Assembly (NCBI GenBank): GCA_964408735.1
Contig: CAYPAX010000007.1
Location: forward strand, 1,450 to 65,449
Reading direction: 5' to 3'
DNA: 64,000 bases
From: an uncultured Rhodospirillaceae bacterium
GTDB lineage: Bacteria; Pseudomonadota; Alphaproteobacteria; UBA7887
Part shown: positions 1-41,513 of the stretch, in pieces
Layout: every line of letters starts with the position of its first letter
Position numbering within the stretch: the stretch's first letter is position 1
Made by a program: the position numbers and the translations under genes
The notes under the pieces: model-generated
The model's database searches: none
What the model saw: only the letters and a program-made list of their open reading frames with translations
What the model was told of the DNA's origin: nothing

Positions 1-1215
1 ATCGCCGCCGCGGCGACGGTGGTCGAGGCCGACTACAGCTACCCGTACCAGAACCACGCGACGATGGAGCCGATGAATGCAACGGCGCTCTGGACCCCCG
101 AAAAGTGCGAGGTCTGGTGCCCAACCCAGAACGGCGAAGCGGCGTTCGCCGCCACCGTCGAGGCAGCGGAACTGCCAGTCGAGCGTTGCGATGTGCACAA
201 GCTCCATCTCGGCGGCGGCTTCGGCCGACGCGGCGCCTTTCATGAATATGTGCGCCAGGCCGTGCTCATCGCCAAGCAAATGCCCGGGGTTCCGGTGAAG
301 CTGCTGTGGACGCGCGAAGAAGACATGACGCACGGCCACTACCATCCCATCACCAAGGCGCGGCTTGCGGGTGGATTGGACGAGAACGGCGAACTCGTCG
401 GTTTGCGTGTGCGCCTGTCAGGGCAATCGATCCTGGCCGCCGTGAGGCCGACGCGCATGCGCGAGGACGGTGCCGACCCGATCACCTTCCAGGGCCTGTT
501 ATCCGGAGGCGACCACGGCTTCATATACAGCGTGCCCAACCTGTTGGCAGACCACGCCATGCGCAATCCCCATGTGCCGCCAGGCTTCTGGCGTGGCGTC
601 AACATCAACCAGAATGCGATCTACCTCGAGTGCTTCCTGGACGAGCTGGCGCACGCGGCGGGCAAGGATGCGCTCGCCTTTCGGCAAAAGCTCCTGGCCG
701 ACGAACCGAAAGCGCTGGCGGTGCTGAATGCGGTGGCCGAACGCGCCGGCTGGGGCACGCCGGCGCCGGCCGGGGTGCATCGCGGGCTTGCCGTGTGCAA
801 GGCGTTCGCGAGCTACATCGCGTCCTGTGCCGAGGCTTCGGTCGCCGAAGACGGAACCCTTACCGTGCACCGTATCGTCGCCGCCACCGACAGCGGCCAT
901 GTGGTCAACCCGCAGCAAGTCGAGGCGCAGGTCGAAGGCTCTTTCGTCTACGGGCTTTCCGCCTTGCTCTATGGCGCCTGCACGGTCAAGGCCGGGCGCA
1001 TCGAGCAGGAGAACTTCGACACGTACAACTCGCTGCGTATCGCAGAAATGCCGGCGGTCGAGACCATCGTCATGCCGTCGGGAGGCTTCTGGGGCGGCGT
1101 CGGCGAGCCCACCATCGCGGTGGCGGCGCCGGCGGTGCTGAACGCCATTTTCCGCGCGACCGGCAAGCGCATCCGGCATTTCCCCCTCAGGAATGCCGAT
1201 TTGAGTGCCGCGTGA
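1..1215 (+). CDS. Xanthine dehydrogenase/aldehyde oxidase family molybdopterin-binding subunit (IorB-like), 3' portion; 5' end lies outside the window
   Basis: Frame is open from nt 1. The translation carries molybdopterin-binding large-subunit motifs (GGGFGRRG, C-terminal dimerisation region). Stop at 1213-1215. Confidence 0.75.
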   Translation: MAAAATVVEADYSYPYQNHATMEPMNATALWTPEKCEVWCPTQNGEAAFAATVEAAELPVERCDVHKLHLGGGFGRRGAFHEYVRQAVLIAKQMPGVPVKLLWTREEDMTHGHYHPITKARLAGGLDENGELVGLRVRLSGQSILAAVRPTRMREDGADPITFQGLLSGGDHGFIYSVPNLLADHAMRNPHVPPGFWRGVNINQNAIYLECFLDELAHAAGKDALAFRQKLLADEPKALAVLNAVAERAGWGTPAPAGVHRGLAVCKAFASYIASCAEASVAEDGTLTVHRIVAATDSGHVVNPQQVEAQVEGSFVYGLSALLYGACTVKAGRIEQENFDTYNSLRIAEMPAVETIVMPSGGFWGGVGEPTIAVAAPAVLNAIFRATGKRIRHFPLRNADLSAA

Positions 1216-1222
1216 TGGGGTG

Positions 1223-1681
1223 ATGGCAATGCCGGCGGCTCGGTGCGCTGCGTGGTGGCTGCCGATTGCGCTGCTGATGACAAACGGCGCTGCTGCGGAG
1301 CCGGTGGTCGGCGACACCATTCCGGAGGCCTTGAGCGATAGCCCCGGCGATGCCGCCAACGGTCAAACTGTCTTCGTCGATCGCGACCGCGGTCATTGCG
1401 TGTTGTGTCATCGCGTGGCTGGACTCGACGAGCCGTTTCAGGGAGACATCGGCCCTGACCTGTCGGCCGTCGGCGAGCGCTTGAGTCCGGCGCAGATGCG
1501 CCTTCGCCTGGTCGATCCGACACGGCTCAACCCGGACACGGCCATGCCCGCCTATCACCGAACGCACGATCTCCGCCAAGTCGCCGAAGCCTATGTCGGC
1601 GTGCCCGTGCTGACGGCGCAGGAGGTCGAGGATGTGGTGGCCTATCTCGCAACCCTGCGGCGCCAGGAGACGGTGGAGTGA
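1223..1681 (+). CDS. soxX: Monohaem c-type cytochrome SoxX
   Basis: About 150 aa with an N-terminal signal peptide and a single CVLCH haem motif. It sits immediately upstream of soxYZA. The ORF opens at GTG 1205; ATG 1223 or 1229 are more likely starts. Confidence 0.7.
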   Translation: MAMPAARCAAWWLPIALLMTNGAAAEPVVGDTIPEALSDSPGDAANGQTVFVDRDRGHCVLCHRVAGLDEPFQGDIGPDLSAVGERLSPAQMRLRLVDPTRLNPDTAMPAYHRTHDLRQVAEAYVGVPVLTAQEVEDVVAYLATLRRQETVE

Positions 1682-2133
1682 CCAAAGCATCAACCAGACG
1701 GGGCTTCATGATCGGTGCAGGGGCAGCCATCGTCACGCTGCGCGCCCTGCCTGTCCAAGCGACGCCGGAGAGCATGAAGGCCGCCATCAATGCGGCCTTC
1801 GGCGATGCCGCCATCCAAGAAGGAAAAGTCACCGTTACCCTGCCGCCGATCAGCGAGAACGGGAACTCGGTCGGTCTGACGGTCGAAGTCGATTGCGCCA
1901 TGACCGAGGCGGATCATGTGCGTTCGATCCATGTGTTCTCGGAGCAGAACCCGCTGCCTGACGTGGCACGCTACCATCTCAATGCGAGGTCGGGCCGGGC
2001 ACGGCTGACGACGCGAATTCGCCTCGCCGACTCCCAAGCCATCGTCGCCGTCGCGACCATGAGCGACGGCACGCTCTGGTCGGGCTCGGCCAAGAGCATC
2101 GTTGCGCTCTCGGCCTGCGTTGATCTGATATGA
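1678..2133 (+). CDS. soxY: SoxY-family sulfur carrier protein with a non-canonical C-terminus
   Basis: Twin-arginine signal (TRRGFMIGAGAA). The core aligns with SoxY (ADHV...NPxPxV...RIRLA..Q.IVAVA.MSDG). GTGA overlap with soxX. The C-terminus is ...ALSACVDLI rather than the usual GGCGG swinging arm. Confidence 0.7.
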   Translation: MTKASTRRGFMIGAGAAIVTLRALPVQATPESMKAAINAAFGDAAIQEGKVTVTLPPISENGNSVGLTVEVDCAMTEADHVRSIHVFSEQNPLPDVARYHLNARSGRARLTTRIRLADSQAIVAVATMSDGTLWSGSAKSIVALSACVDLI

Positions 2134-2143
2134 GGCAGGAGCA

Positions 2144-2464
2144 ATGACCAAGATCCGCCTTGCCGTGCCGGAGACCGCCAAAGCGGGCGAGGTCATCGAG
2201 ATCAAGACCCTGATCGCCCATCCGATGGAAACGGGGTTTCGTCGCGACGCTGTCGGCAAGGCAATCCCGCGCGACATCATCACCGATTTCGCTTGCCTCT
2301 ATAACGGCGAAGAGGTCTTCCGCGCCGCTTTCCAGCCGGCAGTGGCGGCCAATCCGTATCTGACGTTCTTCACCACAGCGATGGACAGCGGTGAGTTGGT
2401 GTTTGTCTGGACAGATCAGCACGGCAACACCTATACCGACACCGCCTCGATCACGGTCGAATGA
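2144..2464 (+). CDS. soxZ: Thiosulfate oxidation carrier complex protein SoxZ
   Basis: 106 aa of SoxZ-like sequence with an AGGAG RBS 6 nt upstream. It follows soxY. Confidence 0.75.
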   Translation: MTKIRLAVPETAKAGEVIEIKTLIAHPMETGFRRDAVGKAIPRDIITDFACLYNGEEVFRAAFQPAVAANPYLTFFTTAMDSGELVFVWTDQHGNTYTDTASITVE

Positions 2465-3222
2465 ACGCCGTCCGCTCCGTAATTTTCGCAGCTTTCCTCT
2501 GGGCAAGCGCCGCCGCAGCGGACGAATTGCTGTCCGGCTATGCCTTTCAGTCTCCGGATACGCAGGCGCTGCAGGACGATCCCTTTGCCAACCCCGGAAT
2601 GCTTTGGGTCGACGCCGGCAGGGATCTCTGGCAATACGCCGACGGCACCGCCGAAAAGGCATGTGCCGCATGCCATGGACCGGATGGCAATGAGATGGCA
2701 GGCGTCGCAGCACGCTATCCGGCTTATGACCGACAGGAACGACATCTGGTCAATCTGGAGCAGCGGATCAACCTGTGCCGCAGCCGCCATCAGGATGCGT
2801 CCCCGCTACCCTACGAATCGGAAGACCTGCTGTCGCTGACCGCTTTCGTTGCCCATCAATCGAATAGCATGTCCATCGATGTGAGCGTCGCTGGCGAGGC
2901 GCGGCCGTTTTTCGAGGCGGGCCGGGCCTACTACACGCAGCGACGGGGGCAGCTCAATCTCGCCTGCCGCCACTGTCATGAGGACAATGCGGGCAAGATG
3001 CTGCGCGGCGATCGCCTGAGCCAAGGCCACGCAAACGGCTACCCGACATATAGGCTGGAATGGCAGACGCTCGGGTCATTGCATCGCAGGCTGCGTTTTT
3101 GCGACCGCGGCGTCCGCGCGGAGCCGCATGCCTTCGGTTCCTCCGAATATGTCAATCTCGAGCTGTTCCTGGCTTGGCGCGCGACTGGATTGAGAATCGA
3201 ATCCCCGGCTGTCCGCCGCTAG
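2461..3222 (+). CDS. soxA: Dihaem cytochrome c SoxA
   Basis: 253 aa with a signal peptide and two haem motifs, CAACH and CRHCH. ATGA overlap with soxZ. Confidence 0.75.
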   Translation: MNAVRSVIFAAFLWASAAAADELLSGYAFQSPDTQALQDDPFANPGMLWVDAGRDLWQYADGTAEKACAACHGPDGNEMAGVAARYPAYDRQERHLVNLEQRINLCRSRHQDASPLPYESEDLLSLTAFVAHQSNSMSIDVSVAGEARPFFEAGRAYYTQRRGQLNLACRHCHEDNAGKMLRGDRLSQGHANGYPTYRLEWQTLGSLHRRLRFCDRGVRAEPHAFGSSEYVNLELFLAWRATGLRIESPAVRR

Positions 3223-19399: not shown

Positions 19400-20269
19400 G
19401 TGAGCAAACCCGTCGCCATCGTCACCGGCGCCAATGCGGGGCTTGGCAAGGAGACCGTGATCGGCCTGGCGAAGACGGGGCTGACGGTGGTCATGGCCTG
19501 TCGCGGCCTCGCGCGCGGGGAGGCCGCCAGGGCCGAGATTCTGGAACGCCTGCCCAGGGCCGATCTGGCGGTCATGGAACTGGATCTGGCGAGCCTGGCT
19601 TCGGTCAGGGCCTTTGCCGCGGCATTCCGCGAAGCCCAACCAAAGCTCGATCTGCTGATCAACAATGCCGGCATCATGGTGCCGCCGCCCGGCCGCAGCG
19701 AGGACGGCTTCGAGATCCAGATGGCGGCGAACTATTTCGGCCACTTTCTGCTCACGGCGCTGCTCATCGACAGCATGCCGGACAGCCGGCGAAGCCGCGT
19801 CGTCTCGCTGGCCAGCATCGCCCACAAGAGCGGGCGCATCCGTCTCGACGGCCTGGCGAGCGCGGGCGATTACGGCCAAAGCAAGCTCGCCTGCCTGATG
19901 TTCGCCTTCGAGCTCGACCGCAGGCTGAAGCGTGCCGGATGGAAGATCCTCTCTGTGGCCGCCCATCCCGGCGTTTCGCTGACACCGCTGGTGCGGCATA
20001 TGAACCCGGTGCTGATCGCGCTGCTCCGCGCCACCGTCGCGCCGGTGCTATTCCACTCGGCGGCGCGGGGGGCGGAATCGACCCTATTGGCGGCGCTCGG
20101 CCGCAAGGTAGAGGGCGGCCAGTATTACGGCCCGCAAGGGCTCATGGAGATGCGTGGGCGCCCCGGCCTCGCCCGCATCGCACCCCAGGCCAGGGACGAG
20201 GCCATAGCTGGCCGGCTCTGGGAGCAGTCCGAGGCGCTGACGGGAGCGGCCTTTCCGTTCGACGCTTAG
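19400..20269 (+). CDS. SDR-family oxidoreductase
   Basis: TGANAGLG Rossmann motif and NNAG. GTG start. Confidence 0.7.
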   Translation: MSKPVAIVTGANAGLGKETVIGLAKTGLTVVMACRGLARGEAARAEILERLPRADLAVMELDLASLASVRAFAAAFREAQPKLDLLINNAGIMVPPPGRSEDGFEIQMAANYFGHFLLTALLIDSMPDSRRSRVVSLASIAHKSGRIRLDGLASAGDYGQSKLACLMFAFELDRRLKRAGWKILSVAAHPGVSLTPLVRHMNPVLIALLRATVAPVLFHSAARGAESTLLAALGRKVEGGQYYGPQGLMEMRGRPGLARIAPQARDEAIAGRLWEQSEALTGAAFPFDA

Positions 20270-21945
20270 CTGTCGAACTCTCTCAGCACCGCGCCCGGCA
20301 GGGCACCGTTGGCGATCAGGCCGCTGGCATCGGCGATACGGCTGCCGTTGACCCAGACACCGTGCAAACCGTTGCCATCGCAGACCAGGCGGCTGGCGCC
20401 GGCCGGCAGGTCGTGGACGCGGCGGTTGGTCGAGCGCCCGACCGTGGCCGGGTCGAACAGCATCATGTCCGCCCAGGCGCCGGGGCGCAGCCGTCCGCGG
20501 TCGGGAATGCGATAGATGTCAGCCTGGCGGCCGGTCATCTCGTAGACCGCGCGCTCGAGCGGAAACAGGCCGCGCTCGCGCACCCAATTGCCGTAGAGGT
20601 GCAGGCCGAAGCCGGCATCGCAGAAGAAGGTCAGGTGTGCGCCCGCGTCCGATAGCGCGATGGTGCTGTGGGGATCGCTCAGCAGCTTGCCGACCGCCTC
20701 GGGCTGGGCATTGAGCAGCACCGAGGCGAAGGTCGTCTTCATGTCCTCGGCCAGGCCGAAGTCGAGGATCCAGTCGAGGGGATCGACTCCCGCCTCCGCC
20801 GCCAGGGAGGCGATGTCGCGGCCTTCCTTGTCGCGGTTGGCGGGGTCCGCCACCTCGGCGATCTTGATGCCGCTCCAGTCGCCGGTAAAGGCGGTCATCT
20901 TGCCGGGATCGGCGATCTCCGCCTTCACCGCCGCGCGCAGGGCGGGGTCGCGGTAGAGGGCCGGCAGCGCTTCCGGCGCGGCTTCCATGATGGGCTTCCA
21001 GGAGTCGAAGGCCTCCATCATGTACGGATTGTACAAGCTGAAATCCAAGGTCAGCGGGCAGCAGGAGACCTGGCCGTAGAGCTCATGGCCGCGGCCGTTG
21101 GCCTCGCCGATCTTCACCATGGCACCCAAGGTGGCGCGGTCGTTCAGGGGGTTGTGCAGCAGCGCGGCGACGATCACCGGCCGCCCCGAGGTCTCGGCCA
21201 GGGATTCCAGGAAGCCCAACTTCGAGCCCGAGCCGCGCGTCAGCATGAAGGCGCCGCGGCCGCCCTCGGCCATGGCGGCGACCAGCGCTTCGATCTCGCT
21301 CTGCTCGGCAAGGCGCGAGGGCATGGGCACGCCGCCGGCGCCGTTGTGGCCTTCGAAGGTCGACGTCGCGAAGCCGATGGCACCGGCCGCCATGCCCTCG
21401 CGCAGCAGGCCCGCCATGGCCGCGATCTCGTCAGCGCTGGCGGCGCGCTCGGTGGCGTCGTCGCCCATCACCCAGGTGCGCAGCGAGGAATGGCCGGCGA
21501 AGCAGGCGACATTGAGGCCGACGCCGCGGGCTGCAATGTGATCGAGATAGTCGCCGAAGCTTTCGAAATCCCAGCGCATGCCTTCGCCGAGCGCCTCCAG
21601 GGACATGCCTTCGACATTGCAAAGATTGCGTGCGGTGGCGGCGCGGTGCTCGGGCTTGCAAGGCGCTACGGTGAAACCGCAATTGCCCATCAGCACCGTG
21701 GTCACGCCGAGGCGCGAGGAAGGATCGAGCCAGGGGTCCCACGTGACCTGGGCGTCGTAATGGGTGTGGGTGTCGATAATGCCCGGCGCCAGCGCCAGGC
21801 CCTCGGCATCGACGACCTCGCGGCCTGTCCCGACATCGCTGCCGATCTCGGCAATACGGCCTTCGCTGACGGCAAGCGCGGCATGTTGCGGCGCTTCGCC
21901 GCTGCCGTCGTAGAGGACTGCGTTCTTGATCACCAGATCATGCAT
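20266..21945 (-). CDS. N-acyl-D-amino-acid deacylase-family amidohydrolase
   Basis: DTHTHYD metal motif and a D-aminoacylase-like architecture. 559 aa from MHDLVIKNAVLYDG. Confidence 0.75.
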   Translation of the reverse strand: MHDLVIKNAVLYDGSGEAPQHAALAVSEGRIAEIGSDVGTGREVVDAEGLALAPGIIDTHTHYDAQVTWDPWLDPSSRLGVTTVLMGNCGFTVAPCKPEHRAATARNLCNVEGMSLEALGEGMRWDFESFGDYLDHIAARGVGLNVACFAGHSSLRTWVMGDDATERAASADEIAAMAGLLREGMAAGAIGFATSTFEGHNGAGGVPMPSRLAEQSEIEALVAAMAEGGRGAFMLTRGSGSKLGFLESLAETSGRPVIVAALLHNPLNDRATLGAMVKIGEANGRGHELYGQVSCCPLTLDFSLYNPYMMEAFDSWKPIMEAAPEALPALYRDPALRAAVKAEIADPGKMTAFTGDWSGIKIAEVADPANRDKEGRDIASLAAEAGVDPLDWILDFGLAEDMKTTFASVLLNAQPEAVGKLLSDPHSTIALSDAGAHLTFFCDAGFGLHLYGNWVRERGLFPLERAVYEMTGRQADIYRIPDRGRLRPGAWADMMLFDPATVGRSTNRRVHDLPAGASRLVCDGNGLHGVWVNGSRIADASGLIANGALPGAVLREFDS

Positions 21946-21962: not shown

Positions 21963-22583
21963 TCAGGTGAGCGGTATGCCGGCGACGCGGGCCTCGAAGG
22001 CGGGACGCGCGCGGGTGCGGGCATACCAGGCATTGAGCGCTGCCATAGCCGGTGGCGCCTTGGCCAGCGAGAACCAGCGCCACGCCAGGATGGCGAGCGG
22101 GATATCGGCGATGGTGAAGCTATCGCCCATGATCCAGTCGCGCCCCTCGAGGCGGGCATCGAGAATTTGCCAGATCGGCACTGCCGCCGCCTCGGCTTCC
22201 GCGATCTGCGCCTCCGTATAGGCCTCGGGCGTGCGCACGCGGCCCCAGAAGATGGTCGTCAGCGGCACCAGCACGGTGGTCTGCTGCCAGTCCATCCAAC
22301 GGTCCGCATCGGCGCGTGCCTGGATATCCGTCGGCCACATGGCACCGGACGCATATTTGGCTGCGAGATAGCGCAGGATGGCGTTGCTTTCCCAGAGCAC
22401 GAAGCCGTCATCCTCGATGGTCGGCACGCGGGCATTGGGATTGCGCGCCAGCATGTCGGCATCGGTGGTGCGGCCGAAATCGCCGCCGATCTCCTCGTGC
22501 TCGAAGCGCAGTGCCGCCTCGTCGCAAAACCATAAGACCTTCTGCACGTTCGACGAATTGCGCCGGCCCCAGACCTTGAGCAT
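21963..22583 (-). CDS. Glutathione S-transferase
   Basis: 206 aa with a GST N-terminal thioredoxin-like domain and a C-terminal helical domain. Confidence 0.7.
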   Translation of the reverse strand: MLKVWGRRNSSNVQKVLWFCDEAALRFEHEEIGGDFGRTTDADMLARNPNARVPTIEDDGFVLWESNAILRYLAAKYASGAMWPTDIQARADADRWMDWQQTTVLVPLTTIFWGRVRTPEAYTEAQIAEAEAAAVPIWQILDARLEGRDWIMGDSFTIADIPLAILAWRWFSLAKAPPAMAALNAWYARTRARPAFEARVAGIPLT

Positions 22584-22593
22584 GGCGGCGCCG

Positions 22594-23217
22594 CTATTCC
22601 GCAGCCTGTGCCGCTTGCGGCGACAAGGGCAGGCCGACCCCGATCATGCTGTCTCGGGTGACGAGCTTGGCGAGATCCTCCTCGCTCCAGCCCTCGGTGC
22701 CGTCGGGGCGCTTCGGCAGCACCATGTAACGCATGTCGGCGGTGGAATCGTGCACCCGCAGCTCGATGTCGTCGGCCATGCTGACGCCGAACTCAGCCAG
22801 CACCGTGCGTGGCTCGCGCACCACGCGCTTGCGGTATTCCTGCGCCTTGTACCAGTCCGGCGGCAGGCCGAGGACGGTGCGCGGATAACAGGAGCAGAGC
22901 GTGCAGACGAAAAGATTGTGCACATCGTCGGTGTTCTCGACCACCACCAGCAGGGTGCCGTCGAGAGTGAGGCCGAGTTCCTCCGCCGCGGCGCTGCCGT
23001 CAGCGAGCATGCGGGCGCGATAGGCCTCGTCGGTCCAGGCGCGGGCGACCATGCGGGCGCCGTCGGCCGGGCTGCGGGCGTCCATGCGTTCCATCTGGCG
23101 GGCGATGCGATCGTCGGTCAGCACGCCATGCTCGACCAGCAATTCGCGCACCGCGACCGCGAGGTGGCGGTAATAGGGGTCGTGCACACCGTGGCGGTGG
23201 TTGACTTCGTCGCTCAT
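22594..23217 (-). CDS. Nitrile hydratase-family alpha subunit, cobalt type
   Basis: The metal-binding motif VCTLCSCYP is followed by a region that aligns with NHase alpha (VVREPR, WSEE-L-LVTRDSMIGV). 207 aa from MSDEVNH. ATGA overlap with the upstream gene. Confidence 0.8.
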   Translation of the reverse strand: MSDEVNHRHGVHDPYYRHLAVAVRELLVEHGVLTDDRIARQMERMDARSPADGARMVARAWTDEAYRARMLADGSAAAEELGLTLDGTLLVVVENTDDVHNLFVCTLCSCYPRTVLGLPPDWYKAQEYRKRVVREPRTVLAEFGVSMADDIELRVHDSTADMRYMVLPKRPDGTEGWSEEDLAKLVTRDSMIGVGLPLSPQAAQAAE

Positions 23218-23513
23218 GACGCCTGCTCCAGCCAATGTTCGTAGATCTCGACCTCGACGCAGTCCTGGGCCGGGCCGGTATAGTCGGGCCACAGATGGGA
23301 TTGCGGAAAACGCACCCGGTAGAGGGTCTGCTTGGGCAGGCCTTCCTCGCCATAGGCGAGCGCTTCGGGATTGCGAAAGGTGCCGCAGATGCGTTCGATC
23401 TCGCCGCTCTTGCCGCGCACATACCAGGGCGTGCGCAAATGGGGTTTGCGCGGCTCGCTGGGCGGATCGCGGAAGGCGACATGCACCTTATCGCCGACAG
23501 CGAAGCGGCTCAT
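23214..23513 (-). CDS. Nitrile hydratase beta subunit, C-terminal half, as a separate polypeptide (ToyL/ScnA-like)
   Basis: 99 aa. FxVGDKVxV...PRYVRGKxG...LYxVRF matches the C-terminal SH3-like domain of NHase beta. ATGA overlaps at both ends. Confidence 0.7.
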   Translation of the reverse strand: MSRFAVGDKVHVAFRDPPSEPRKPHLRTPWYVRGKSGEIERICGTFRNPEALAYGEEGLPKQTLYRVRFPQSHLWPDYTGPAQDCVEVEIYEHWLEQAS

Positions 23514-23818
23514 GCCTCTCCCTCCCGCGCCGCCACCTCGGCCACCCGCGCCTGTACCTCGGTCTCGTCGAGCACGCCCTTCTCGATCAGAATGGCGGCG
23601 ATGGAAGCAATCCAGCGCTCGTAATAGCTCAAGGACGAGTAGGCATCCGGCGCCAACGCCTCGATGCCGCGGCGCAGCTCGTCGACGCGCATGATCTTCT
23701 CTTCCTGGATCAGCAACGACATCAGCGCATCGATACGCTTCTCCCAGACGTCGTAGTCGTGCTCGCCAAGCTCCACCGGCCCCGCTGGCTGGCCGCCCAT
23801 ATCATGATGACTGCGCAT
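23510..23818 (-). CDS. Nitrile hydratase beta subunit, N-terminal half, as a separate polypeptide (ToyK/ScnB-like)
   Basis: 103 aa from MRSHHDMGG, which matches the HDLGG start of NHase beta. Other matches are WEKRIDAL and YYERWI. GGGAGG RBS. Confidence 0.7.
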   Translation of the reverse strand: MRSHHDMGGQPAGPVELGEHDYDVWEKRIDALMSLLIQEEKIMRVDELRRGIEALAPDAYSSLSYYERWIASIAAILIEKGVLDETEVQARVAEVAAREGEA

Positions 23819-24064: not shown

Positions 24065-24949
24065 TCAGCCCAGCCTTGCCACGAAGTCCGCCACCGCTTC
24101 GCCTATCTGGTCGGGGGAGTCTTCCTGGATGAAGTGGAGGCCGGGGACGGTGACCTCGGTCTGGTTGGGCCAGGCGCGGCAGAACTCGCGCTGCTCGCCG
24201 ACCAGAATGCTGCCGGGATCGGCGTTGATGAAGAGCTTGGGCAGGTCGCTTGACGCCAGCCATTGCGAATAGCCCTCGGCGATGGCGACCACGTCCGCCG
24301 GCTCGCCGTCGATGGGGATCTGGCGCGGCCAGGTCAGGGTCGGGCGGCGGGATTCGCCGGGCTCCGTGAAGCGCTTGCGGTAATGCGCCATCTCGGCGTC
24401 GCTCAAGCCCCGGGCCACGGCGCGGGGCAATAGCACCTCGACGAAAAGGTTCTTGGTCAGCACCATGTCGTCCCCCGCCGGCGAGCGCAGGGCCTGGAAG
24501 AACTCGCGCGCGCCGTCGGGCCAGTCGGCCCACGACACGGGTCGTACCAGCGCTTCCATATAGGCGATGCCGGCAACCCGGTCCTGGTTGCGGTGGGCCC
24601 AGTGGAAGCCGAGGGCGGAGCCCCAGTCGTGCACCACGAAGACCGCGTCGCGCAGATCCATGGCCGCGAGCCAGGCGTCGAGATAGCGGGCGTGGGTGGC
24701 GAAGGTGTAGTCGCCATCCGACGAGACGCCGGAGTCCCCCATGCCGATGAGGTCCGGTGCCAGGCAACGATTGCCCTCGGCCAAATGCGGGATGATATTG
24801 CGCCAGAGATAAGACGAGGTCGGGTTGCCGTGCAGGAACACCACGGGACGGCCATCGGCCTTGCCGGTGTCCACATAGGCGATCTCGGAATCGAGCACGG
24901 CGGCGCGCCGGCGCGGGTGGGGGTCGGCGGCGGATGGCGTGGCTGTCAT
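24065..24949 (-). CDS. Haloalkane dehalogenase-family alpha/beta hydrolase
   Basis: FLHGNPTSSYLWRNIIPHL and HDWGSALG are hallmarks of DhaA-type haloalkane dehalogenases. 294 aa from MTATPSAAD. Confidence 0.75.
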   Translation of the reverse strand: MTATPSAADPHPRRRAAVLDSEIAYVDTGKADGRPVVFLHGNPTSSYLWRNIIPHLAEGNRCLAPDLIGMGDSGVSSDGDYTFATHARYLDAWLAAMDLRDAVFVVHDWGSALGFHWAHRNQDRVAGIAYMEALVRPVSWADWPDGAREFFQALRSPAGDDMVLTKNLFVEVLLPRAVARGLSDAEMAHYRKRFTEPGESRRPTLTWPRQIPIDGEPADVVAIAEGYSQWLASSDLPKLFINADPGSILVGEQREFCRAWPNQTEVTVPGLHFIQEDSPDQIGEAVADFVARLG

Positions 24950-27451: not shown

Positions 27452-30439
27452 ATGAGGAAACTGCTCGACGAGCTTGACTTTCACTATGGCGAATCGGCAC
27501 TGACCGCTATGGCGTCCCGTTTGGCGGCCGCGCAAGAGCATAGGTTCCAAGCGGGCGACTCCAGGACGCAGGAGGTGACCCGAACGACCGCGCTCGTCGT
27601 GCTTGCCGAGATGGACGACAGGGTGGCCGAGGCCTTGGCCGCGGGGAAACTCTCTCTTGAGGCATTCCGCGAGGAGGTGGCGCTGAGCGGGGCGATCGCG
27701 TCGGTTTCGGCGACGGATGTCGACCTGCATGCGAATTTTGGCACTGCCATCAGGGGCTACGCCGCACGGTATCCGGACAAGCGTGACCTCACGCCGCACG
27801 CGCTAGCGCTCGCCATTGCCGAGATGGCCGAGGCGGACGCAGGCGGCTTGATCCCCGACCGGCTGCGCGAGGCAGGCGCGGACATCTCCGCGATCGTGAT
27901 GGCCCTGCGCGCGATTCATGTTGCCCCGACGACCCTGGATGTTCCGCGCCCGACGGTCTGGCTGCTGCACTACGATGTCACCGATCAACTGGTCGGCTTG
28001 ATCTTGGGCAACGATCTTGAAACTACGGTTGCTTGGATAAGCAAGAAAATCGTCGACGGGATCGAGCCTAGCGATCCGGTGATATATTGGCGCAACACGA
28101 GCGCTGACGAGAAGCGTAGCGGCGGCCTCGTGGGAACGGGCCGGTTCGTGAGCGGGCGGCACAGCGAAGCCGAGGAACCTCCGGATCCCGGCGAGGGCAG
28201 GTCTGCCCGGAAGGCCTATGCGACCGAGATCATCGAGCGGTTTCCGGATGACGTAATACCCGAGGATGACATTATCACCGAGACAGGGCTCGATATGCCC
28301 TGGCGCCTTGGCTCGATACTCGAAGTGCCGAACGACGTGGCCCTGAAGATCGACGACATGTTGACCTCACGGGGTCACGTCAGCCTGTTTCCCCGGCTGG
28401 CGACGGAGATCACGTTCGTCGATGATTCGCCGAAGGCCGACGAGGACTATCTGCAGCGCGCCGAGCATGCCTTCGTGTTGGCTGCGCGGCTCAATCGCAT
28501 CTGGGAGGAGGCCTGCGGCATTGGCGAGCCGCCGCCGCAGGAGCCGGGCACGGTAGCAAGCGCGAGCTGGACCGGCATCGGCGCGGAAGAGGCCACGCCG
28601 GCCGCGGAAAACAGCTTCGTGGTTCACATAGACGCGCCGTGGGGAGGCGGCAAGACGACCTTCGCCAACTACCTGACCCGCATACTCAATCCATTTCGCC
28701 ATGGCACCGGCGAGCCCAGTTGGCTCGGTCGGCTACACCTTGATGACGCTGAGGCCTGGCCGCGTGAGTTCCGCAAGCCCTGGTGCGTGGTCGAGTTCAA
28801 CGCCTGGGAGCACGAGCATATCGACCCGCCCTGGTGGGTGTTCTATCAGGCCGTCAGGCGGCAATGCTTCGAAGCGGTCAGGACCGAGCACTTCCGCAAC
28901 ACCGCCTTCGACTGGTCCGCGGAGAACGGCTGGCGCACGGCCGTGGTGCGTCATCTCGACTGGCTGGCATTGTGGCTCAGGGAACTCGGCTGGCGGATAT
29001 TCACGCCACGTGTTGGCCTTCTCGGCATGACCTTCGCCCTGACCGTGGTGCTGGCGATCATTCTCGCCCAGCATGACCTGTTCGACCCGGACAGCGTGCT
29101 GTCGGGAGAAGAGGCCGACATAGTCGCGGCAACGCCCGCGCCTGGGTTGGAAACACAAGGCGCAGGCGATACCGCAGATGCGGCGGTGGACGGTGCGGGA
29201 AAGCCGGTCGCCGATGAAGCGGGCAACGGGCAGTCGGAAGGCACGCTGTCGCAGATAATCGTCACCTCGGTGCTCGTGCTGCTCGGCGGCGCCACCGGGA
29301 TATGGTCGGTCGTGGCCGCCTTCACGCAGTCGCTGCTGCCCGGAACACCGAGCTCGGCGCGCAACTACTCGCTAGGCTCGGGCGATCCGCTCGACCGCTT
29401 TCGCATCCACTTCGATCGCATGATGCGACAGCTCGGGCGCCCGATCGTCGTCATTGTCGATGACATCGACCGCTGCAATCCGCAGTTCGTCGTGGAATTG
29501 TTGCGTGGCATGCAAATCATCCTCAAGAGCCCGCGCGTGGTATATCTGCTGCTCGGCGACAGGAACTGGATCGAGCAAAGCTTTTCCGAGGTGCACAAGG
29601 CCATGAAGGATCTGAGCGTTGGTCCCGAACACAGCCTGGGCGGCCGTTTCGTTGAAAAGTCGATCCAGCTGTCCTTGATACTGCCCGGCATATCGTTCGA
29701 AGATAAGTCGGAATATGTGCGGCGAATTCTCAACGTCGATGGCAATGGCGCTGCCGCGCCGGCCGGGACCGAGTCGGCGAATCGGCTGGCCGATATCCAT
29801 GAGGATCTGGAGGCCATCTCCGCGGTCAAGGATCCGGTGCGGCGCGACGCCGGCGCGAGCACGCTGCGCCGCTCGATAGAGAGCGATGCGGCGCTCGACG
29901 ACGATCAGAGGAAGGCCGCCCAAAGGGAGATCGACGTTACGCTTGCCATGCGCTCCGCCGTCGACGAATCCCTGCAGCAGGCGACGCAGCACCGCCTGGT
30001 ACCCATCGCCGGTGTGCTACCGGCGAACCCGCGGCAGATCAAGCGTATCATCAACGCCGTCGCCTTCCTGCAGGAGATCGCCCGCATCGCCGAAGGCATA
30101 CAGCCCGGCAGCAAGGAATGGTGCAACATGGCGCTTTGGGTGGTTGTGATGACCGAATGGCCGCGCAGCTGGGCAAAAATGTCGCATTATCCCCGGCTTA
30201 TCGATCGCCTGCGCAACCCGAGCCTCCAAGACACCGACGGCTTGCCGGAACAAAAGCTCATGGCAAGCTGGCTCAAGACGATCAGGGAGGATGTCGGCCT
30301 GGTAGCGCTGCTCGACTTCAGCTCGAAGAACCCGCAATGGACCGAAGCGCGGCTCGAGGCCGATGACATACGGCGCTTCCGCAATTTCATGCCGCCGCCG
30401 CCGGAGATCGACGAAACGCCACCGCCCGAGCAGAAGTAA
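27452..30439 (+). CDS. KAP-family P-loop NTPase with a ~390-aa uncharacterised N-terminal extension and TM helices inserted into the NTPase domain
   Basis: Walker A APWGGGKT is followed by the FNAW motif. Hydrophobic helices (VGLLGMTFALTVVLAIILA, IIVTSVLVLLGGATGIWSVVAAF) sit between Walker A and Walker B (IVVIVDDIDRC). The KAP signature NPRQIKRIINAVAF is present. 995 aa. Confidence 0.8.
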   Translation: MRKLLDELDFHYGESALTAMASRLAAAQEHRFQAGDSRTQEVTRTTALVVLAEMDDRVAEALAAGKLSLEAFREEVALSGAIASVSATDVDLHANFGTAIRGYAARYPDKRDLTPHALALAIAEMAEADAGGLIPDRLREAGADISAIVMALRAIHVAPTTLDVPRPTVWLLHYDVTDQLVGLILGNDLETTVAWISKKIVDGIEPSDPVIYWRNTSADEKRSGGLVGTGRFVSGRHSEAEEPPDPGEGRSARKAYATEIIERFPDDVIPEDDIITETGLDMPWRLGSILEVPNDVALKIDDMLTSRGHVSLFPRLATEITFVDDSPKADEDYLQRAEHAFVLAARLNRIWEEACGIGEPPPQEPGTVASASWTGIGAEEATPAAENSFVVHIDAPWGGGKTTFANYLTRILNPFRHGTGEPSWLGRLHLDDAEAWPREFRKPWCVVEFNAWEHEHIDPPWWVFYQAVRRQCFEAVRTEHFRNTAFDWSAENGWRTAVVRHLDWLALWLRELGWRIFTPRVGLLGMTFALTVVLAIILAQHDLFDPDSVLSGEEADIVAATPAPGLETQGAGDTADAAVDGAGKPVADEAGNGQSEGTLSQIIVTSVLVLLGGATGIWSVVAAFTQSLLPGTPSSARNYSLGSGDPLDRFRIHFDRMMRQLGRPIVVIVDDIDRCNPQFVVELLRGMQIILKSPRVVYLLLGDRNWIEQSFSEVHKAMKDLSVGPEHSLGGRFVEKSIQLSLILPGISFEDKSEYVRRILNVDGNGAAAPAGTESANRLADIHEDLEAISAVKDPVRRDAGASTLRRSIESDAALDDDQRKAAQREIDVTLAMRSAVDESLQQATQHRLVPIAGVLPANPRQIKRIINAVAFLQEIARIAEGIQPGSKEWCNMALWVVVMTEWPRSWAKMSHYPRLIDRLRNPSLQDTDGLPEQKLMASWLKTIREDVGLVALLDFSSKNPQWTEARLEADDIRRFRNFMPPPPEIDETPPPEQK

Positions 30440-38378: not shown

Positions 38379-39191
38379 ATGGTGGACTTTCCTTTCGATA
38401 TGCCGCGCCTGGAGGCGGGCTGGGTGTGGCTGGTGGGCACCGGGCCGGGGGATCCGGGCCTGCTCACCCTGCATGCCTGGAACGCCATGCAACAGGCGGA
38501 CGTGGTGGTCTATGACGCGCTGGTCGGCGATCAGGTGATGGCCATGATCGGGCCCGGAGCCGAGGTCGAGTTCGCCGGCAAGCGCGGCGGCAAGCCCTCG
38601 GCGCGGCAGCCGGATATCTCGCGCCGGCTCGTGGAACTCGCCAAGGCGGGCAAGCGCGTGGTGCGGCTGAAGGGCGGCGATCCTTTCGTTTTCGGGCGTG
38701 GCGGCGAGGAAGCCCTGGCGCTGGTCGCGGCGGGCGTGCCGTTCCGTGTCGTGCCGGGTATCTCGGCGGGCATCGGCGCCTTGGCCTATGCGGGCATTCC
38801 GCTCACCCACCGCAGCACCAATGCGGCGGTCACCTTCGTCACCGGCCACGCGGCGGACGGGGAGGTGCCGGGGGCGCTGGACTGGGATGCCATCGCCCGC
38901 GGCTCGCCGGTCATCGTGCTCTACATGGCCATGGGCCATCTCGCCGCCATTGCCGCGCGCCTGCAGGCGGGCGGCCGTGCGGCGGACGAGCCGGTGGCAG
39001 TGATCTCGGCGGCGACCACCCCGGCCCAGGTGGTGCTGGAGACCACGCTGGGGGCCTGTGCGGCGGAGGCCGAGGCCGCCGCTGTCGGGCCGCCGGCGAT
39101 CGTCGTGGTCGGCGATGTGGTGCGGCTGCGCGCGGGCCTCGACTGGCTGGGGGCGGCTGCCGGCAAGACGCTTAACGCCGAGCCGCTGTGA
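38379..39191 (+). CDS. cobA: Uroporphyrinogen-III C-methyltransferase
   Basis: Methylase motifs GTGPGDPGLLT and GGDPFVFGRGGEE. 270 aa. Confidence 0.85.
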   Translation: MVDFPFDMPRLEAGWVWLVGTGPGDPGLLTLHAWNAMQQADVVVYDALVGDQVMAMIGPGAEVEFAGKRGGKPSARQPDISRRLVELAKAGKRVVRLKGGDPFVFGRGGEEALALVAAGVPFRVVPGISAGIGALAYAGIPLTHRSTNAAVTFVTGHAADGEVPGALDWDAIARGSPVIVLYMAMGHLAAIAARLQAGGRAADEPVAVISAATTPAQVVLETTLGACAAEAEAAAVGPPAIVVVGDVVRLRAGLDWLGAAAGKTLNAEPL

Positions 39192-40486
39192 GCGCGCCGG
39201 CGCTGATCCTGGCCGCGCCCGCGTCCGCCAGCGGCAAGACCACGCTGACCCTGGCGCTGCTGAGGGCGTTTCGAAACCGTGGTGTGCGGGTGGCCTCCTT
39301 CAAGGTCGGGCCGGACTATATCGATCCCGCCTTCCATGCCGCGGCATCCGGGCACCCCTGCCCCAATCTCGACACCTGGGCCATGCGCCCCGGCACCGTC
39401 GCGGCCATCGTTAGCGAGCTATGTGCCGATGCGGAGCTGGTCATCGGCGAGGGCGTCATGGGCCTCTTCGACGGTGCCGCCGGCGGCGGCGGCTCGACCG
39501 CCGACGTCGCCGCCGCGCTGGGTCTGCCGGCGGTGCTGGTGCACGATGTCAAGGGCCAGTGGGCGAGCGCCGCCGCCGTCGTCGAGGGCTTCGCCAACCA
39601 TCGCGCCGACGTGGCCGTGGCCGGGGTGATCTTCAACTATGTCGGCAGCCCCCGCCACGCCGCCCTGCTGGAGAAGGCTTGCGCCGATGTCGCGCCGGCC
39701 CGCCTCGGTGCCGTGCCCCGCGACGATCGTCTGGCTCTGCCCGACCGCCATCTCGGCCTGGTGCAGGCGGGCGAGCATGCGGGCCTCGAAGACTTTCTCG
39801 ACGGTGCCGCCGCGCTTGTCGCCGCCCATGTCGACCTCGACCGCCTCGCCGCTCTCGCCCGGGTTCCGACCGCCAGCGCCGAGGCCTGCCCGCCGCTGCC
39901 GCCGCTCGGCCAGCGCATTGCCATCGCCAACGATACCGCCTTCGCTTTTGCCTACCGTCACCTATGCCTAACCTTGCACGACCAGGGGGCCGAGCTGTTG
40001 CCGTTTTCGCCCCTTGCAGATGAGCCGCCGGGCGACGCGGACGCCATCTATCTGCCAGGCGGCTACCCGGAATTGCACGCCGGGCGCCTGGCCGCCAACG
40101 CCCGCTTCCTAGACGGCCTAAGGGCAGCCGCCGCCGGCGGCGTCACGGTCTATGGCGAATGCGGCGGCTATATGGTTCTAGGCGATGGGCTCATCGATGG
40201 CGACAGCGCGCGCCACGCCATGGCCGGGCTGTTGCCGCTCGAGACGTCGTTCGCGAAACCGCGCCTGCATCTCGGCTATCGCCAGCTGGCGCTGGCGGCC
40301 GATACGCCGCTGGGGGCCAAGGGCGCCCGCTTTCGCGCCCACGAGTTCCACTATGCGGAGGGCATGCCCGGCAGGGCGGCGGCCCTATTCGAGGCCAGCG
40401 ATTCCGAAGGCCGGCCGCTGGGACCCGCGGGACTGTGCGCGGGCTCGGTGATGGGCTCGTTCATGCACCTCGTCGACGCAGCGTGA
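39188..40486 (+). CDS. cobB: Cobyrinate a,c-diamide synthase
   Basis: The N-terminal ATP-binding motif SGKT and a C-terminal glutamine amidotransferase domain are colinear with CobB/CbiA. GTG start with a 4-nt overlap onto cobA. Confidence 0.8.
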   Translation: MSAPALILAAPASASGKTTLTLALLRAFRNRGVRVASFKVGPDYIDPAFHAAASGHPCPNLDTWAMRPGTVAAIVSELCADAELVIGEGVMGLFDGAAGGGGSTADVAAALGLPAVLVHDVKGQWASAAAVVEGFANHRADVAVAGVIFNYVGSPRHAALLEKACADVAPARLGAVPRDDRLALPDRHLGLVQAGEHAGLEDFLDGAAALVAAHVDLDRLAALARVPTASAEACPPLPPLGQRIAIANDTAFAFAYRHLCLTLHDQGAELLPFSPLADEPPGDADAIYLPGGYPELHAGRLAANARFLDGLRAAAAGGVTVYGECGGYMVLGDGLIDGDSARHAMAGLLPLETSFAKPRLHLGYRQLALAADTPLGAKGARFRAHEFHYAEGMPGRAAALFEASDSEGRPLGPAGLCAGSVMGSFMHLVDAA

Positions 40487-40639: not shown

Positions 40640-41320
40640 TCAGGCGGGATGGCTGTCGCTGTGACCCAGCCGTGCCATTGCAGTGGCGGCAAGCGCGCCA
40701 AGCGCCAGCCAGAAGACGAGATTGGCGACCATGGTCGCGCTTACGAAAGCCGCTGCCATCTCGGGCGGCACGCTGCCGGCGATGGCCGGCACCTCGGGTG
40801 CGCCGACCGCATGGGGCAGAACGATGAGCACCACGCCGATGGTCTTCAGCCAGGTCGCCGGCACCAGCAGCAGCGCCCACAGGCCGATGCCCGTGGCGAC
40901 CACCGTACCGAGCCACCAGGCCTGACGCTCGGCCAGCTCGCCACCGACCATGCCGGGCAATTCGGGCGGCATCCCGAGGGCCGGCGCAAGGGAGAACACG
41001 GCAAAGCCGGCCAGACCCCATAACGCGCCCTGGCGCCAGTCCAGCCGGCGCCCGGTCAGCGCCAGCGCAGCACTCAACAGCAAGGCGAAACCGACGCCGA
41101 CCAGCACATTGGTGCCGAGGCGCAGAACCACGCGCCCGCCTTCGCTTTCGGGGATTGCGGCAGCATCGCCATGGCCATGATCGTGGCCGTCCGCCGCCTG
41201 CACCTCATAGGTCTCGGCAGCGAGGATCAGCGGCTGCACCTTGTGCGCCTGCAGCGCCGTCAGCAAAAGGCCAGACAGCACACCGGCGATGATTGCCGAT
41301 AGGGCAATTCTCAGAAACAT
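40640..41320 (-). CDS. cbtA: Cobalt transporter subunit CbtA
   Basis: Multi-TM protein with a His-rich loop (DGHDHGHGD) and CbtA-like topology. Start placed at MFLRIALS. Confidence 0.7.
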   Translation of the reverse strand: MFLRIALSAIIAGVLSGLLLTALQAHKVQPLILAAETYEVQAADGHDHGHGDAAAIPESEGGRVVLRLGTNVLVGVGFALLLSAALALTGRRLDWRQGALWGLAGFAVFSLAPALGMPPELPGMVGGELAERQAWWLGTVVATGIGLWALLLVPATWLKTIGVVLIVLPHAVGAPEVPAIAGSVPPEMAAAFVSATMVANLVFWLALGALAATAMARLGHSDSHPA

Positions 41321-41324
41321 GCGC

Positions 41325-41513
41325 TCAGTGGCAGGGGAACGCCATGCCGTGCCGCCCGTCATGAGCGGCATTGTGCAGGACTGACGGCTGGGCGAAGCCT
41401 ACGCCATAAAGGATAAAGGCGCCAAGCAGGACCGCAGCCACGGCAGCCGCCAAAGTCCCGAGCCCTTGTTCAGCCTGGGTGCCGCTCTCGACACGTGCGC
41501 CAATTGCCGTCAT
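41325..41513 (-). CDS. cbtB: Cobalt transporter subunit CbtB
   Basis: 62 aa, one TM helix, C-terminal HNAAHDGRHGMAFPCH (the CbtB signature). Located directly upstream of cbtA. Confidence 0.65.
   Translation of the reverse strand: MTAIGARVESGTQAEQGLGTLAAAVAAVLLGAFILYGVGFAQPSVLHNAAHDGRHGMAFPCH

Follow-up and report, generated by a model that had tools for sequence, protein, structure and literature searches.

The 64,000-nucleotide stretch of DNA analysed here (the window) covers positions 1,450 to 65,449 of contig CAYPAX010000007.1 from an uncultured Rhodospirillaceae bacterium and has a G+C content of 66%. On its minus strand lie three consecutive genes, which an earlier note made from the letters alone had read as a cobalt-type enzyme of the nitrile hydratase (NHase) family with a beta subunit divided between two polypeptides. 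The first gene, betaN (23818..23510), encodes a protein of 102 amino acids which starts with MRSHHDMGG and corresponds to the N-terminal half of NHase beta. It is followed by betaC (23513..23214, 99 amino acids), the counterpart of the C-terminal SH3-like barrel half, and by the gene of the alpha subunit (23217..22594, 207 amino acids), which carries VCTLCSCYP at residues 104-112. As had been described, the stop codon of betaN and the start codon of betaC share an ATGA at 23513-23510, and betaC and alpha are joined in the same manner at 23217-23214, so that the three genes are translationally coupled. The ribosome-binding context claimed for the two small genes was also found, and one ahead of alpha as well, in the form of Shine-Dalgarno-like sites reading GGGAGGA for betaN (23830-23824), GGGAGGGAGAGG for betaC (23526-23515), and GGAG for alpha (23229-23226), all on the minus strand. 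The positions of these sites favour the ATG at 23818 over an upstream TTG as the start of betaN, and the ATG at 23217 over an upstream GTG as the start of alpha. Ahead of betaN a promoter-like TTGCCA-18-CACAAT is present on the same strand (23869-23840), which is weak evidence, as one such match was observed in 5.6 kb and 0.5 were expected from shuffles.

All three products are assigned to the NHase family by curated models. In Pfam, betaN matches NHase_beta_N (PF21006, 7e-22), betaC matches NHase_beta_C (PF02211, 4e-19), and alpha matches NHase_alpha (PF02979, 6e-80). The alpha subunit passes the NCBIfam equivalog nitrile_alph (TIGR01323) with 260.5 bits against a cut-off of 249.85 and stays below the model for the gamma subunit of thiocyanate hydrolase (SCNase; TIGR03887) with 209 bits against a cut-off of 291.45. 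Its top matches in the PDB are the alpha chains of cobalt-type NHases at 214–227 bits, and SCNase gamma reaches 157 bits. The metal claw reads C105-T-L-C108-S-C110 (VCTLCSC spanning residues 104-110) and is followed by Y-P-R113. By the Thr/Ser rule a threonine in the claw denotes the cobalt type, a mark which is also used in PMC7329996. The earlier assignment to a cobalt-type member of the family, made up of alpha and two beta halves, is upheld by these matches together with the VCTLCSC sequence.

The two small proteins divide the beta subunit between them. On the 226 positions of the NCBIfam model nitrile_beta (TIGR03888), betaN spans positions 1-100 with 69.5 bits and betaC positions 137-226 with 61 bits, each below the cut-off of 152.2 bits for a single-chain beta, and each also matches the corresponding half of the solved beta chains in the PDB. 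The motif H-x-R-x-P-x-Y-x-R-G in betaC is invariant among 24 homologues and aligns with the canonical HTRLPRY.RG. In the alignment with canonical nthB products, DELRRGIE and YYERW of betaN and HLRTPWYVRG of betaC are kept; the pair thus retains both conserved arginine motifs as well as the segment Tyr-Tyr-x-x-Trp. Together betaN and betaC supply the whole of a normal beta subunit apart from the approximately 36 central linker positions (101-136 of the model), which are absent from both.

The divided beta subunit is found far beyond this contig. Identical copies of the alpha protein occur in 45 blocks of the public collection of assemblies, carried by contigs from independent ENA/JGI metagenome samples, and the three-gene region of 1276 bp is 100% identical in four contigs from separate ENA/JGI samples, which differ from each other by a few single-nucleotide polymorphisms outside of it. 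A search with betaC yielded 551 stand-alone proteins of about 95-105 amino acids which contain the beta_C domain only. When a single genome of each species was scanned, a protein of this kind was encoded in at least 588 of these species-level genomes. The best 80 of these loci (L001-L080) were compared. The order betaN-betaC-alpha is kept in 76 of the 80, and within these 76 the 4-nucleotide overlap of betaN and betaC recurs in 67, that of betaC and alpha in 25, nearly all of the others having a gap or overlap of less than 30 nucleotides at the latter junction. In comparison to the closest relative (L001, an uncultured Rhodospirillaceae metagenome-assembled genome with 89.5% DNA identity) the ratio of nonsynonymous to synonymous substitution rates is 0.16 for betaN, 0.23 for betaC, and 0.25 for alpha, and because of these low values all three genes are considered to be under purifying selection.

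The best 80 loci come mainly from Alphaproteobacteria (Rhodospirillales, Reyranella, Vineibacter, Stellaceae, Dongiaceae, Kiloniellales, and marine clades), with a few from Beta- or Gammaproteobacteria and Planctomycetes. The order betaN-betaC-alpha also occurs on complete RefSeq plasmids of Streptomyces sp. NBC_01176, Planktothrix agardhii, and Agrobacterium rubi, where the PGAP annotation names the half-subunit genes "SH3-like domain-containing protein" and once "nitrile hydratase". A second split layout, betaC-alpha-betaN, is carried by plasmids of Rhizobium, Burkholderia, Polymorphobacter, and Microvirga (L087, L090, L096, L099, L100). A proteobacterial example had been called unusual, which does not hold in view of the at least 588 genomes, the mostly alphaproteobacterial best 80, and the cultured plasmid-bearing strains of Agrobacterium, Rhizobium, Burkholderia, Polymorphobacter, and Microvirga. 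A three-subunit, activator-less NHase of the cobalt type is already known; it is common rather than rare in Alphaproteobacteria, and the operon of the window is a typical one. In 2012 Marron et al. noted for Roseobacter sp. CCS2 a beta subunit which 'appeared truncated', and they replaced it for their alignment (PMC3323583); this "truncated" protein was probably an unrecognised alphaproteobacterial split beta.

The plasmid loci with the order betaC-alpha-betaN also carry CSCYPR in their alpha subunits. Genes for HoxN or CbtAB cobalt transporters lie next to them, and at some of the loci there are also genes for an aquaporin, DUF302, cytochrome P460, sulfite oxidase, or cyanase. The group might stand nearer to the chemistry of thiocyanate or sulfur. 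An N-terminal extension of the Burkholderia betaC resembles a twin-arginine signal (SRRSWLKALAASGAAVA). Among the relatives of alpha there are furthermore natural fusions (proteins P0123, P0131, P0134, P0143, P0150, P0170, and P0173), namely betaN-alpha, betaC-alpha, betaN-betaC-alpha, which is eukaryote-like, and betaN-betaC-alpha followed by a HAD hydrolase. The betaN, betaC, and alpha modules are thus joined in many combinations across the family.

No gene for an NHase activator had been noticed near the operon, and this stood up when two NHase accessory proteins from RefSeq were used as tblastn queries. No accessory gene was detected in the window, where the only matches were the betaN gene (E 0.007) and the N-terminus of alpha (E 0.08), and in the 80 related loci, with about 6–8 kb on each side, betaN genes only were matched. 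De novo clustering of the open reading frames around the 80 loci did not find a fourth conserved gene either.

A residue shortly after the claw, on which the earlier note had not remarked, separates the split-beta enzymes from the canonical ones. Split-beta alphas read CSCYPR where canonical two-subunit alphas read CSCYPW. At the position of Arg113, 73 of 77 related loci have arginine, two lysine, and two valine. In the annotated operons arginine is found in 8 of 8 with a split beta, irrespective of the gene order, and tryptophan in 4 of 4 canonical ones with an accessory gene. Among 150 representatives of the whole alpha superfamily the position is variable, with 55 arginines, 21 tryptophans, and also leucine, threonine, serine, valine, and others. 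In a local alignment without gaps, Arg113 falls opposite residue 136 of SCNase gamma (2dd4_C) and residue 116 of the alpha subunit of the Pseudonocardia thermophila enzyme (PtNHase). Aligned to the alpha subunit of the window, the variant 3vyg_C scores 3.9 bits below wild-type 2dd4_C and the variant 3vyh_A 3.7 bits above wild-type 1ire_A (position 116), as expected from a change of arginine to tryptophan and of tryptophan to arginine at that position. We take these structures to be R136W and W116R, for which no confirming open paper was found, and a search for open literature on the role of Arg136 in SCNase or of Trp116 in PtNHase likewise yielded none. An arginine in place of the canonical pocket tryptophan suggests a more polar or anionic nitrile substrate than the usual hydrophobic ones. 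As arginine occurs in all of the sampled split-beta enzymes, it is a mark of the clade and no proof of the use of thiocyanate.

A bootstrapped neighbour-joining tree was calculated for 33 alphas, with RefSeq plasmid operons and PDB alignment fragments standing in for ToyJ, AnhA, and ScnC. Canonical and split-type alphas are separated by a bipartition with 97.5% bootstrap support, which places the alpha subunit of the window outside of the ordinary two-subunit NHases; the earlier note had named a position inside them as an outcome which would count against its reading. The betaC-alpha-betaN group received 94% in the same tree. A broader neighbour-joining tree of 138 sequences without bootstrap agrees with the separation of canonical and split types.

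Taken together, the three genes probably specify a working nitrile hydratase (EC 4.2.1.84 family) of the cobalt type, independent of an activator and composed of three polypeptides, a reading which is supported by the preservation of the layout across hundreds of species and of catalytic motifs in both beta halves. By analogy to the family and to the enzyme of Streptomyces canus (ScNHase), alpha would bind a non-corrin Co(III) ion, Cys108 would be oxidised to the sulfinic and Cys110 to the sulfenic acid, the complex would probably be (betaN.betaC.alpha)2, and a nitrile would be hydrated to the amide. A D-aminoacylase-like amidohydrolase encoded downstream may then cleave the amide; it is a candidate partner and not a constant one.

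Several observations weigh against this reading. No activity, metal, or expression data were found for the protein of the window or for any member of the CSCYPR type. The arginine of the pocket is shared with thiocyanate hydrolase, and the substrate is possibly not an ordinary nitrile. The search for an activator spanned 64 kb of the genome only, and an activator gene may be located elsewhere. The gene contexts across the family are heterogeneous, and the amidohydrolase gene (window 20305-21942) is missing from L001 (at about 9560), which is a clean presence/absence difference. Finally, AnhA of ScNHase probably has a leucine where the alpha subunit of the window has Arg113, as judged from residue numbers, and is not a close orthologue.

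A more far-reaching proposal, which we consider possible though unlikely, is that the CSCYPR split-beta enzymes form a functionally distinct branch of the NHases acting on small polar or anionic substrates with a C-N triple bond in place of classical nitriles, to which the pocket arginine in common with thiocyanate hydrolase could adapt them, and that this branch is perhaps ancestral. Hundreds of alphaproteobacterial species, most of them uncultured, encode these enzymes, and a biochemical study of them was not found. If the branch is distinct, thiocyanate, cyanamide, cyanate-like compounds, or carboxylated nitriles such as beta-cyanoalanine would come into consideration as substrates. If it is in addition ancestral, betaN would have been both subunit and chaperone, the canonical enzymes would have arisen by fusion of betaN and betaC, and the activator would be a spare copy of betaN which was kept after the fusion.

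Somewhat less probable still is an enzyme resembling thiocyanate hydrolase, which would act on thiocyanate or on another small anionic or polar compound with a C-N triple bond (cyanate, cyanamide, or cyanide adducts) instead of organic nitriles, and which might feed sulfur to the Sox system encoded in the window. The two systems share three subunits in the order N-half, C-half, and catalytic chain, SCNase beta aligning with betaN and SCNase alpha with betaC, they share the arginine at position 113 (gamma 136) with the corresponding score shifts of 3.9 and 3.7 bits for the variants, and soxXYZA is located at 1205-3222. The curated models point in the other direction, as alpha remains at 209 bits on the SCNase gamma model (cut-off 291.45) yet passes the NHase alpha equivalog, and in the PDB the cobalt-type NHase alphas score 214–227 bits compared to 157 for SCNase gamma. 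The N-terminal extensions of SCNase are absent from the subunits of the window, the arginine is found in every sampled split-beta enzyme, including that of the Agrobacterium operon which is preceded by an amidase gene, and sox is 20 kb away and not a conserved neighbour among the relatives. The thiocyanate route which had been called conceivable is therefore disfavoured by the models and is kept alive, weakly, by the shared arginine of the pocket.

One may further ask if betaN is an activator of the P14K/NhlE type, with a catalytic enzyme consisting of alpha and a truncated beta, betaC. The accessory proteins are homologous to the N-terminal half of beta, two of them match the betaN gene in tblastn (E 0.007), betaN gives a weak match of 18 bits to the accessory model TIGR03889, and AnhD of ScNHase behaves as a chaperone. 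The 18 bits compare, however, with a cut-off of 46 on that model and with the 69.5 bits by which betaN fits positions 1-100 of the beta model. In a joint alignment betaN keeps the HDMGG (HDxGG) N-terminus, WEKR, the arginine of DELRRGIE, and YYERW. The true accessory proteins are devoid of the beta N-terminus and show a gap at the DELRRGIE arginine, so that HDxGG, the active-site arginine, and Tyr-Tyr-x-x-Trp are features of betaN which none of them has. The near-universal 4-nucleotide coupling of betaN and betaC fits equimolar subunits, and the activity of ScNHase requires both AnhD and AnhE in a holoenzyme AnhD2E2A2. We regard this possibility as decidedly improbable, and judged by its sequence betaN is not merely an activator. 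A frameshift within a single beta gene, through a sequencing or assembly error or in a pseudogene, would be another way to obtain betaN and betaC. Apart from the general expectation that neighbouring half-genes are frequently artefacts nothing speaks for it, and it was rejected as practically negligible in view of the 100% identity of the region in four independent assemblies, the same split with its conserved overlap (67 of 76) in hundreds of genomes, central positions of a fused beta which are absent and not shifted in frame, purifying selection on both halves, and complete RefSeq plasmids annotated with the same architecture; the earlier note had already called it unlikely.

Several further genes lie around the operon. 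A glutathione S-transferase of 206 amino acids (21963-22583, minus strand; GST_N and GST_C in Pfam; PDB 6nv6, 1e-48) begins 10 nucleotides past the stop codon of alpha and is found at this place also in L001. It is followed after 17 nucleotides by the gene of a D-aminoacylase-like metallo-amidohydrolase of the Amidohydro_3 family with 559 amino acids (20266..21945, minus strand; PF07969; 1m7j, 2e-40), and both genes are probably co-transcribed with alpha. A homologue of the amidohydrolase lies directly 3' of alpha in L002 and L053, and in Agrobacterium rubi a signature amidase is encoded directly upstream of betaN-betaC-alpha. On the other side, 246 nucleotides upstream of betaN, there is a haloalkane dehalogenase of 294 amino acids (24065-24949, minus strand; equivalog NF002938 with 426 bits, cut-off 241), with a short-chain dehydrogenase/reductase and an acyl-CoA synthetase encoded divergently beyond it. 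Dehalogenase homologues are located just upstream of betaN in L001, L002, L005, L006, L007, L045, L050, and L053, and the dehalogenase and the short-chain dehydrogenase/reductase accompany the operon in the nearest clade only. Neither the clustering around the 80 loci nor four contexts annotated with Pfam revealed conserved neighbours beyond the three genes. A route from nitrile via amide to acid, possibly for halogenated or other polar nitriles, can reasonably be inferred, though no more than that.

The glutathione S-transferase, the haloalkane dehalogenase, and soxXYZA had all been named as neighbours earlier and are all present in the window. The sox genes, recognised by eye from the translations, are arranged on the plus strand as soxX (1205-1681, with a CxxCH), soxY (1678-2133, with a Tat-like, i.e., twin-arginine translocation-like, leader), soxZ (2144-2464), and soxA (2461-3222, with two CxxCH). 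The cobalt uptake proteins CbtA (40640-41371; TIGR02458, 210 bits) and CbtB (about 41328-41417) are likewise encoded as claimed, and a specific link to the NHase genes is not borne out for them, because they stand beside cobB (39188-40486), in a vitamin B12 context 17 kb away. Elsewhere, HoxN or CbtAB genes adjoin split-type operons in six cultured strains (of Streptomyces, Burkholderia, Rhizobium, Polymorphobacter, and Microvirga) and in three marine loci, which supports the use of cobalt at the level of the family. A scan of the window with Rfam at the gathering threshold detected no cobalamin riboswitch and no other element.

Some further genes were noticed in the course of these comparisons. 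In one lineage, a Rhodospirillales metagenome-assembled genome (L091 and L013 denote this one locus), a gene for a type I cysteine dioxygenase (PF05995, L091 6907-7488) begins 5 nucleotides past the stop codon of alpha, which is intriguing because the maturation of NHase needs a cysteine oxidised to the sulfinic acid. A cupin-like protein of about 170 amino acids with a histidine-rich C-terminal tail (HPHPHDHGHTHAHPH) recurs some 3.7 kb upstream of betaC in 11 of the loci L001-L080 (in L019, for instance, at relative positions -2399..-1884), and could be metal-related. An open reading frame of 85 amino acids without a match in Pfam lies directly 3' of alpha in L092 (6988-7245), L020, and L031, which are Aliidongia-like, and it has no homologue in the window. 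The window also encodes a P-loop NTPase of the KAP family with 995 amino acids (27452-30439, plus strand), which gives a weak match of 52 bits (cut-off 600) to the anti-phage ATPase QatA.

This architecture is not a curiosity of Streptomyces; it is standard in a large assemblage of alphaproteobacteria, most of them uncultured. Cobalt NHases with three subunits which do without an activator are attractive as biocatalysts because they need one maturation gene fewer, and they bear on the question of how the cobalt centre is assembled. The conserved arginine of the pocket, which canonical enzymes lack, offers a handle on specificity and on the origin of the activators from the N-terminal half of beta. 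What remains of some interest is the CSCYPR clade with its substrate and the evolutionary link of betaN to the activators.

When compared to known systems, the canonical cobalt-type NHases of P. thermophila, B. pallidus, and P. putida have alpha subunits which are 51–56% identical to that of the window, with the same fold and claw, and share with it both beta domains and the catalytic arginine and tyrosine residues. Their beta subunit is, however, one chain of 206–233 amino acids with a central linker, in contrast to the two chains of the window, and their nthA-nthB operons carry a dedicated accessory gene and the pocket tryptophan of CSCYPW, neither of which is found in the window. The thiocyanate hydrolase ScnB/ScnA/ScnC of Thiobacillus thioparus (PDB 2DD4) has the same division of chains, its beta corresponding to betaN, its alpha to betaC, and its gamma to NHase alpha, and shares the cobalt-type claw with an arginine three residues past the third cysteine. 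Its chains are longer (beta 157, alpha 126, and gamma 243 amino acids as compared to 102, 99, and 207 in the window), the matches to the subunits of the window, which are without the N-terminal extensions, beginning at residues 45 (beta), 35 (alpha), and 28 (gamma). The alpha subunit of the window is nearer to NHase alphas than to SCNase gamma, falling short of TIGR03887 (209 vs 291 bits).

The other characterised three-subunit NHase, as far as the citing text in PMC7329996 goes, is the toyocamycin nitrile hydratase ToyJKL. This enzyme of Streptomyces rimosus resembles that of the window, by description only, as a three-subunit cobalt-type NHase with split beta and no activator, and differs from it in belonging to a nucleoside-antibiotic biosynthetic cluster and in having a defined substrate. 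The work of Nelp et al. from 2014 reportedly describes ToyJKL as cobalt-type with split beta and no activator, the alpha subunit alone being able to mature. In the toy genes, unlike those of the window, alpha comes first.

The characterised system which most resembles the operon of the window, and which the earlier note had overlooked, is ScNHase from Streptomyces canus CGMCC 13662. Its genes anhD-anhE-anhA encode the N-terminal half of beta, the C-terminal half of beta, and alpha, with subunits of 10.4 (AnhD), 11.35 (AnhE), and 21.3 kDa (AnhA) (PMC7329996). The enzyme contains cobalt, hydrates nitriles independently of an activator, and has the composition AnhD2E2A2 in solution, and it was assayed on xenobiotic N-cyano insecticides and on benzonitrile; AnhD acts as a metal and self-subunit-swapping chaperone via an AnhD2A complex (PMC7329996; also covered in the review PMC13243292). 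ScNHase and the enzyme of the window are alike in the order betaN-betaC-alpha, in subunits of about 10, 11, and 21–23 kDa, in the cobalt-type CTLCSC, and in the absence of an activator gene. The docking residues Tyr108, Leu110, Lys121, and Arg160 of ScNHase fit the alpha subunit of the window at a shift of -3. ScNHase is the enzyme of an actinomycete whereas the window is alphaproteobacterial, the two being likened by the published description and not by sequence, and it probably comes from a different sub-branch; a homologue on a Streptomyces plasmid (L085) has 59–61% identity to the window. With its gene order, subunit sizes, cobalt content, and independence of an activator, ScNHase is the closest characterised precedent of the operon described here.

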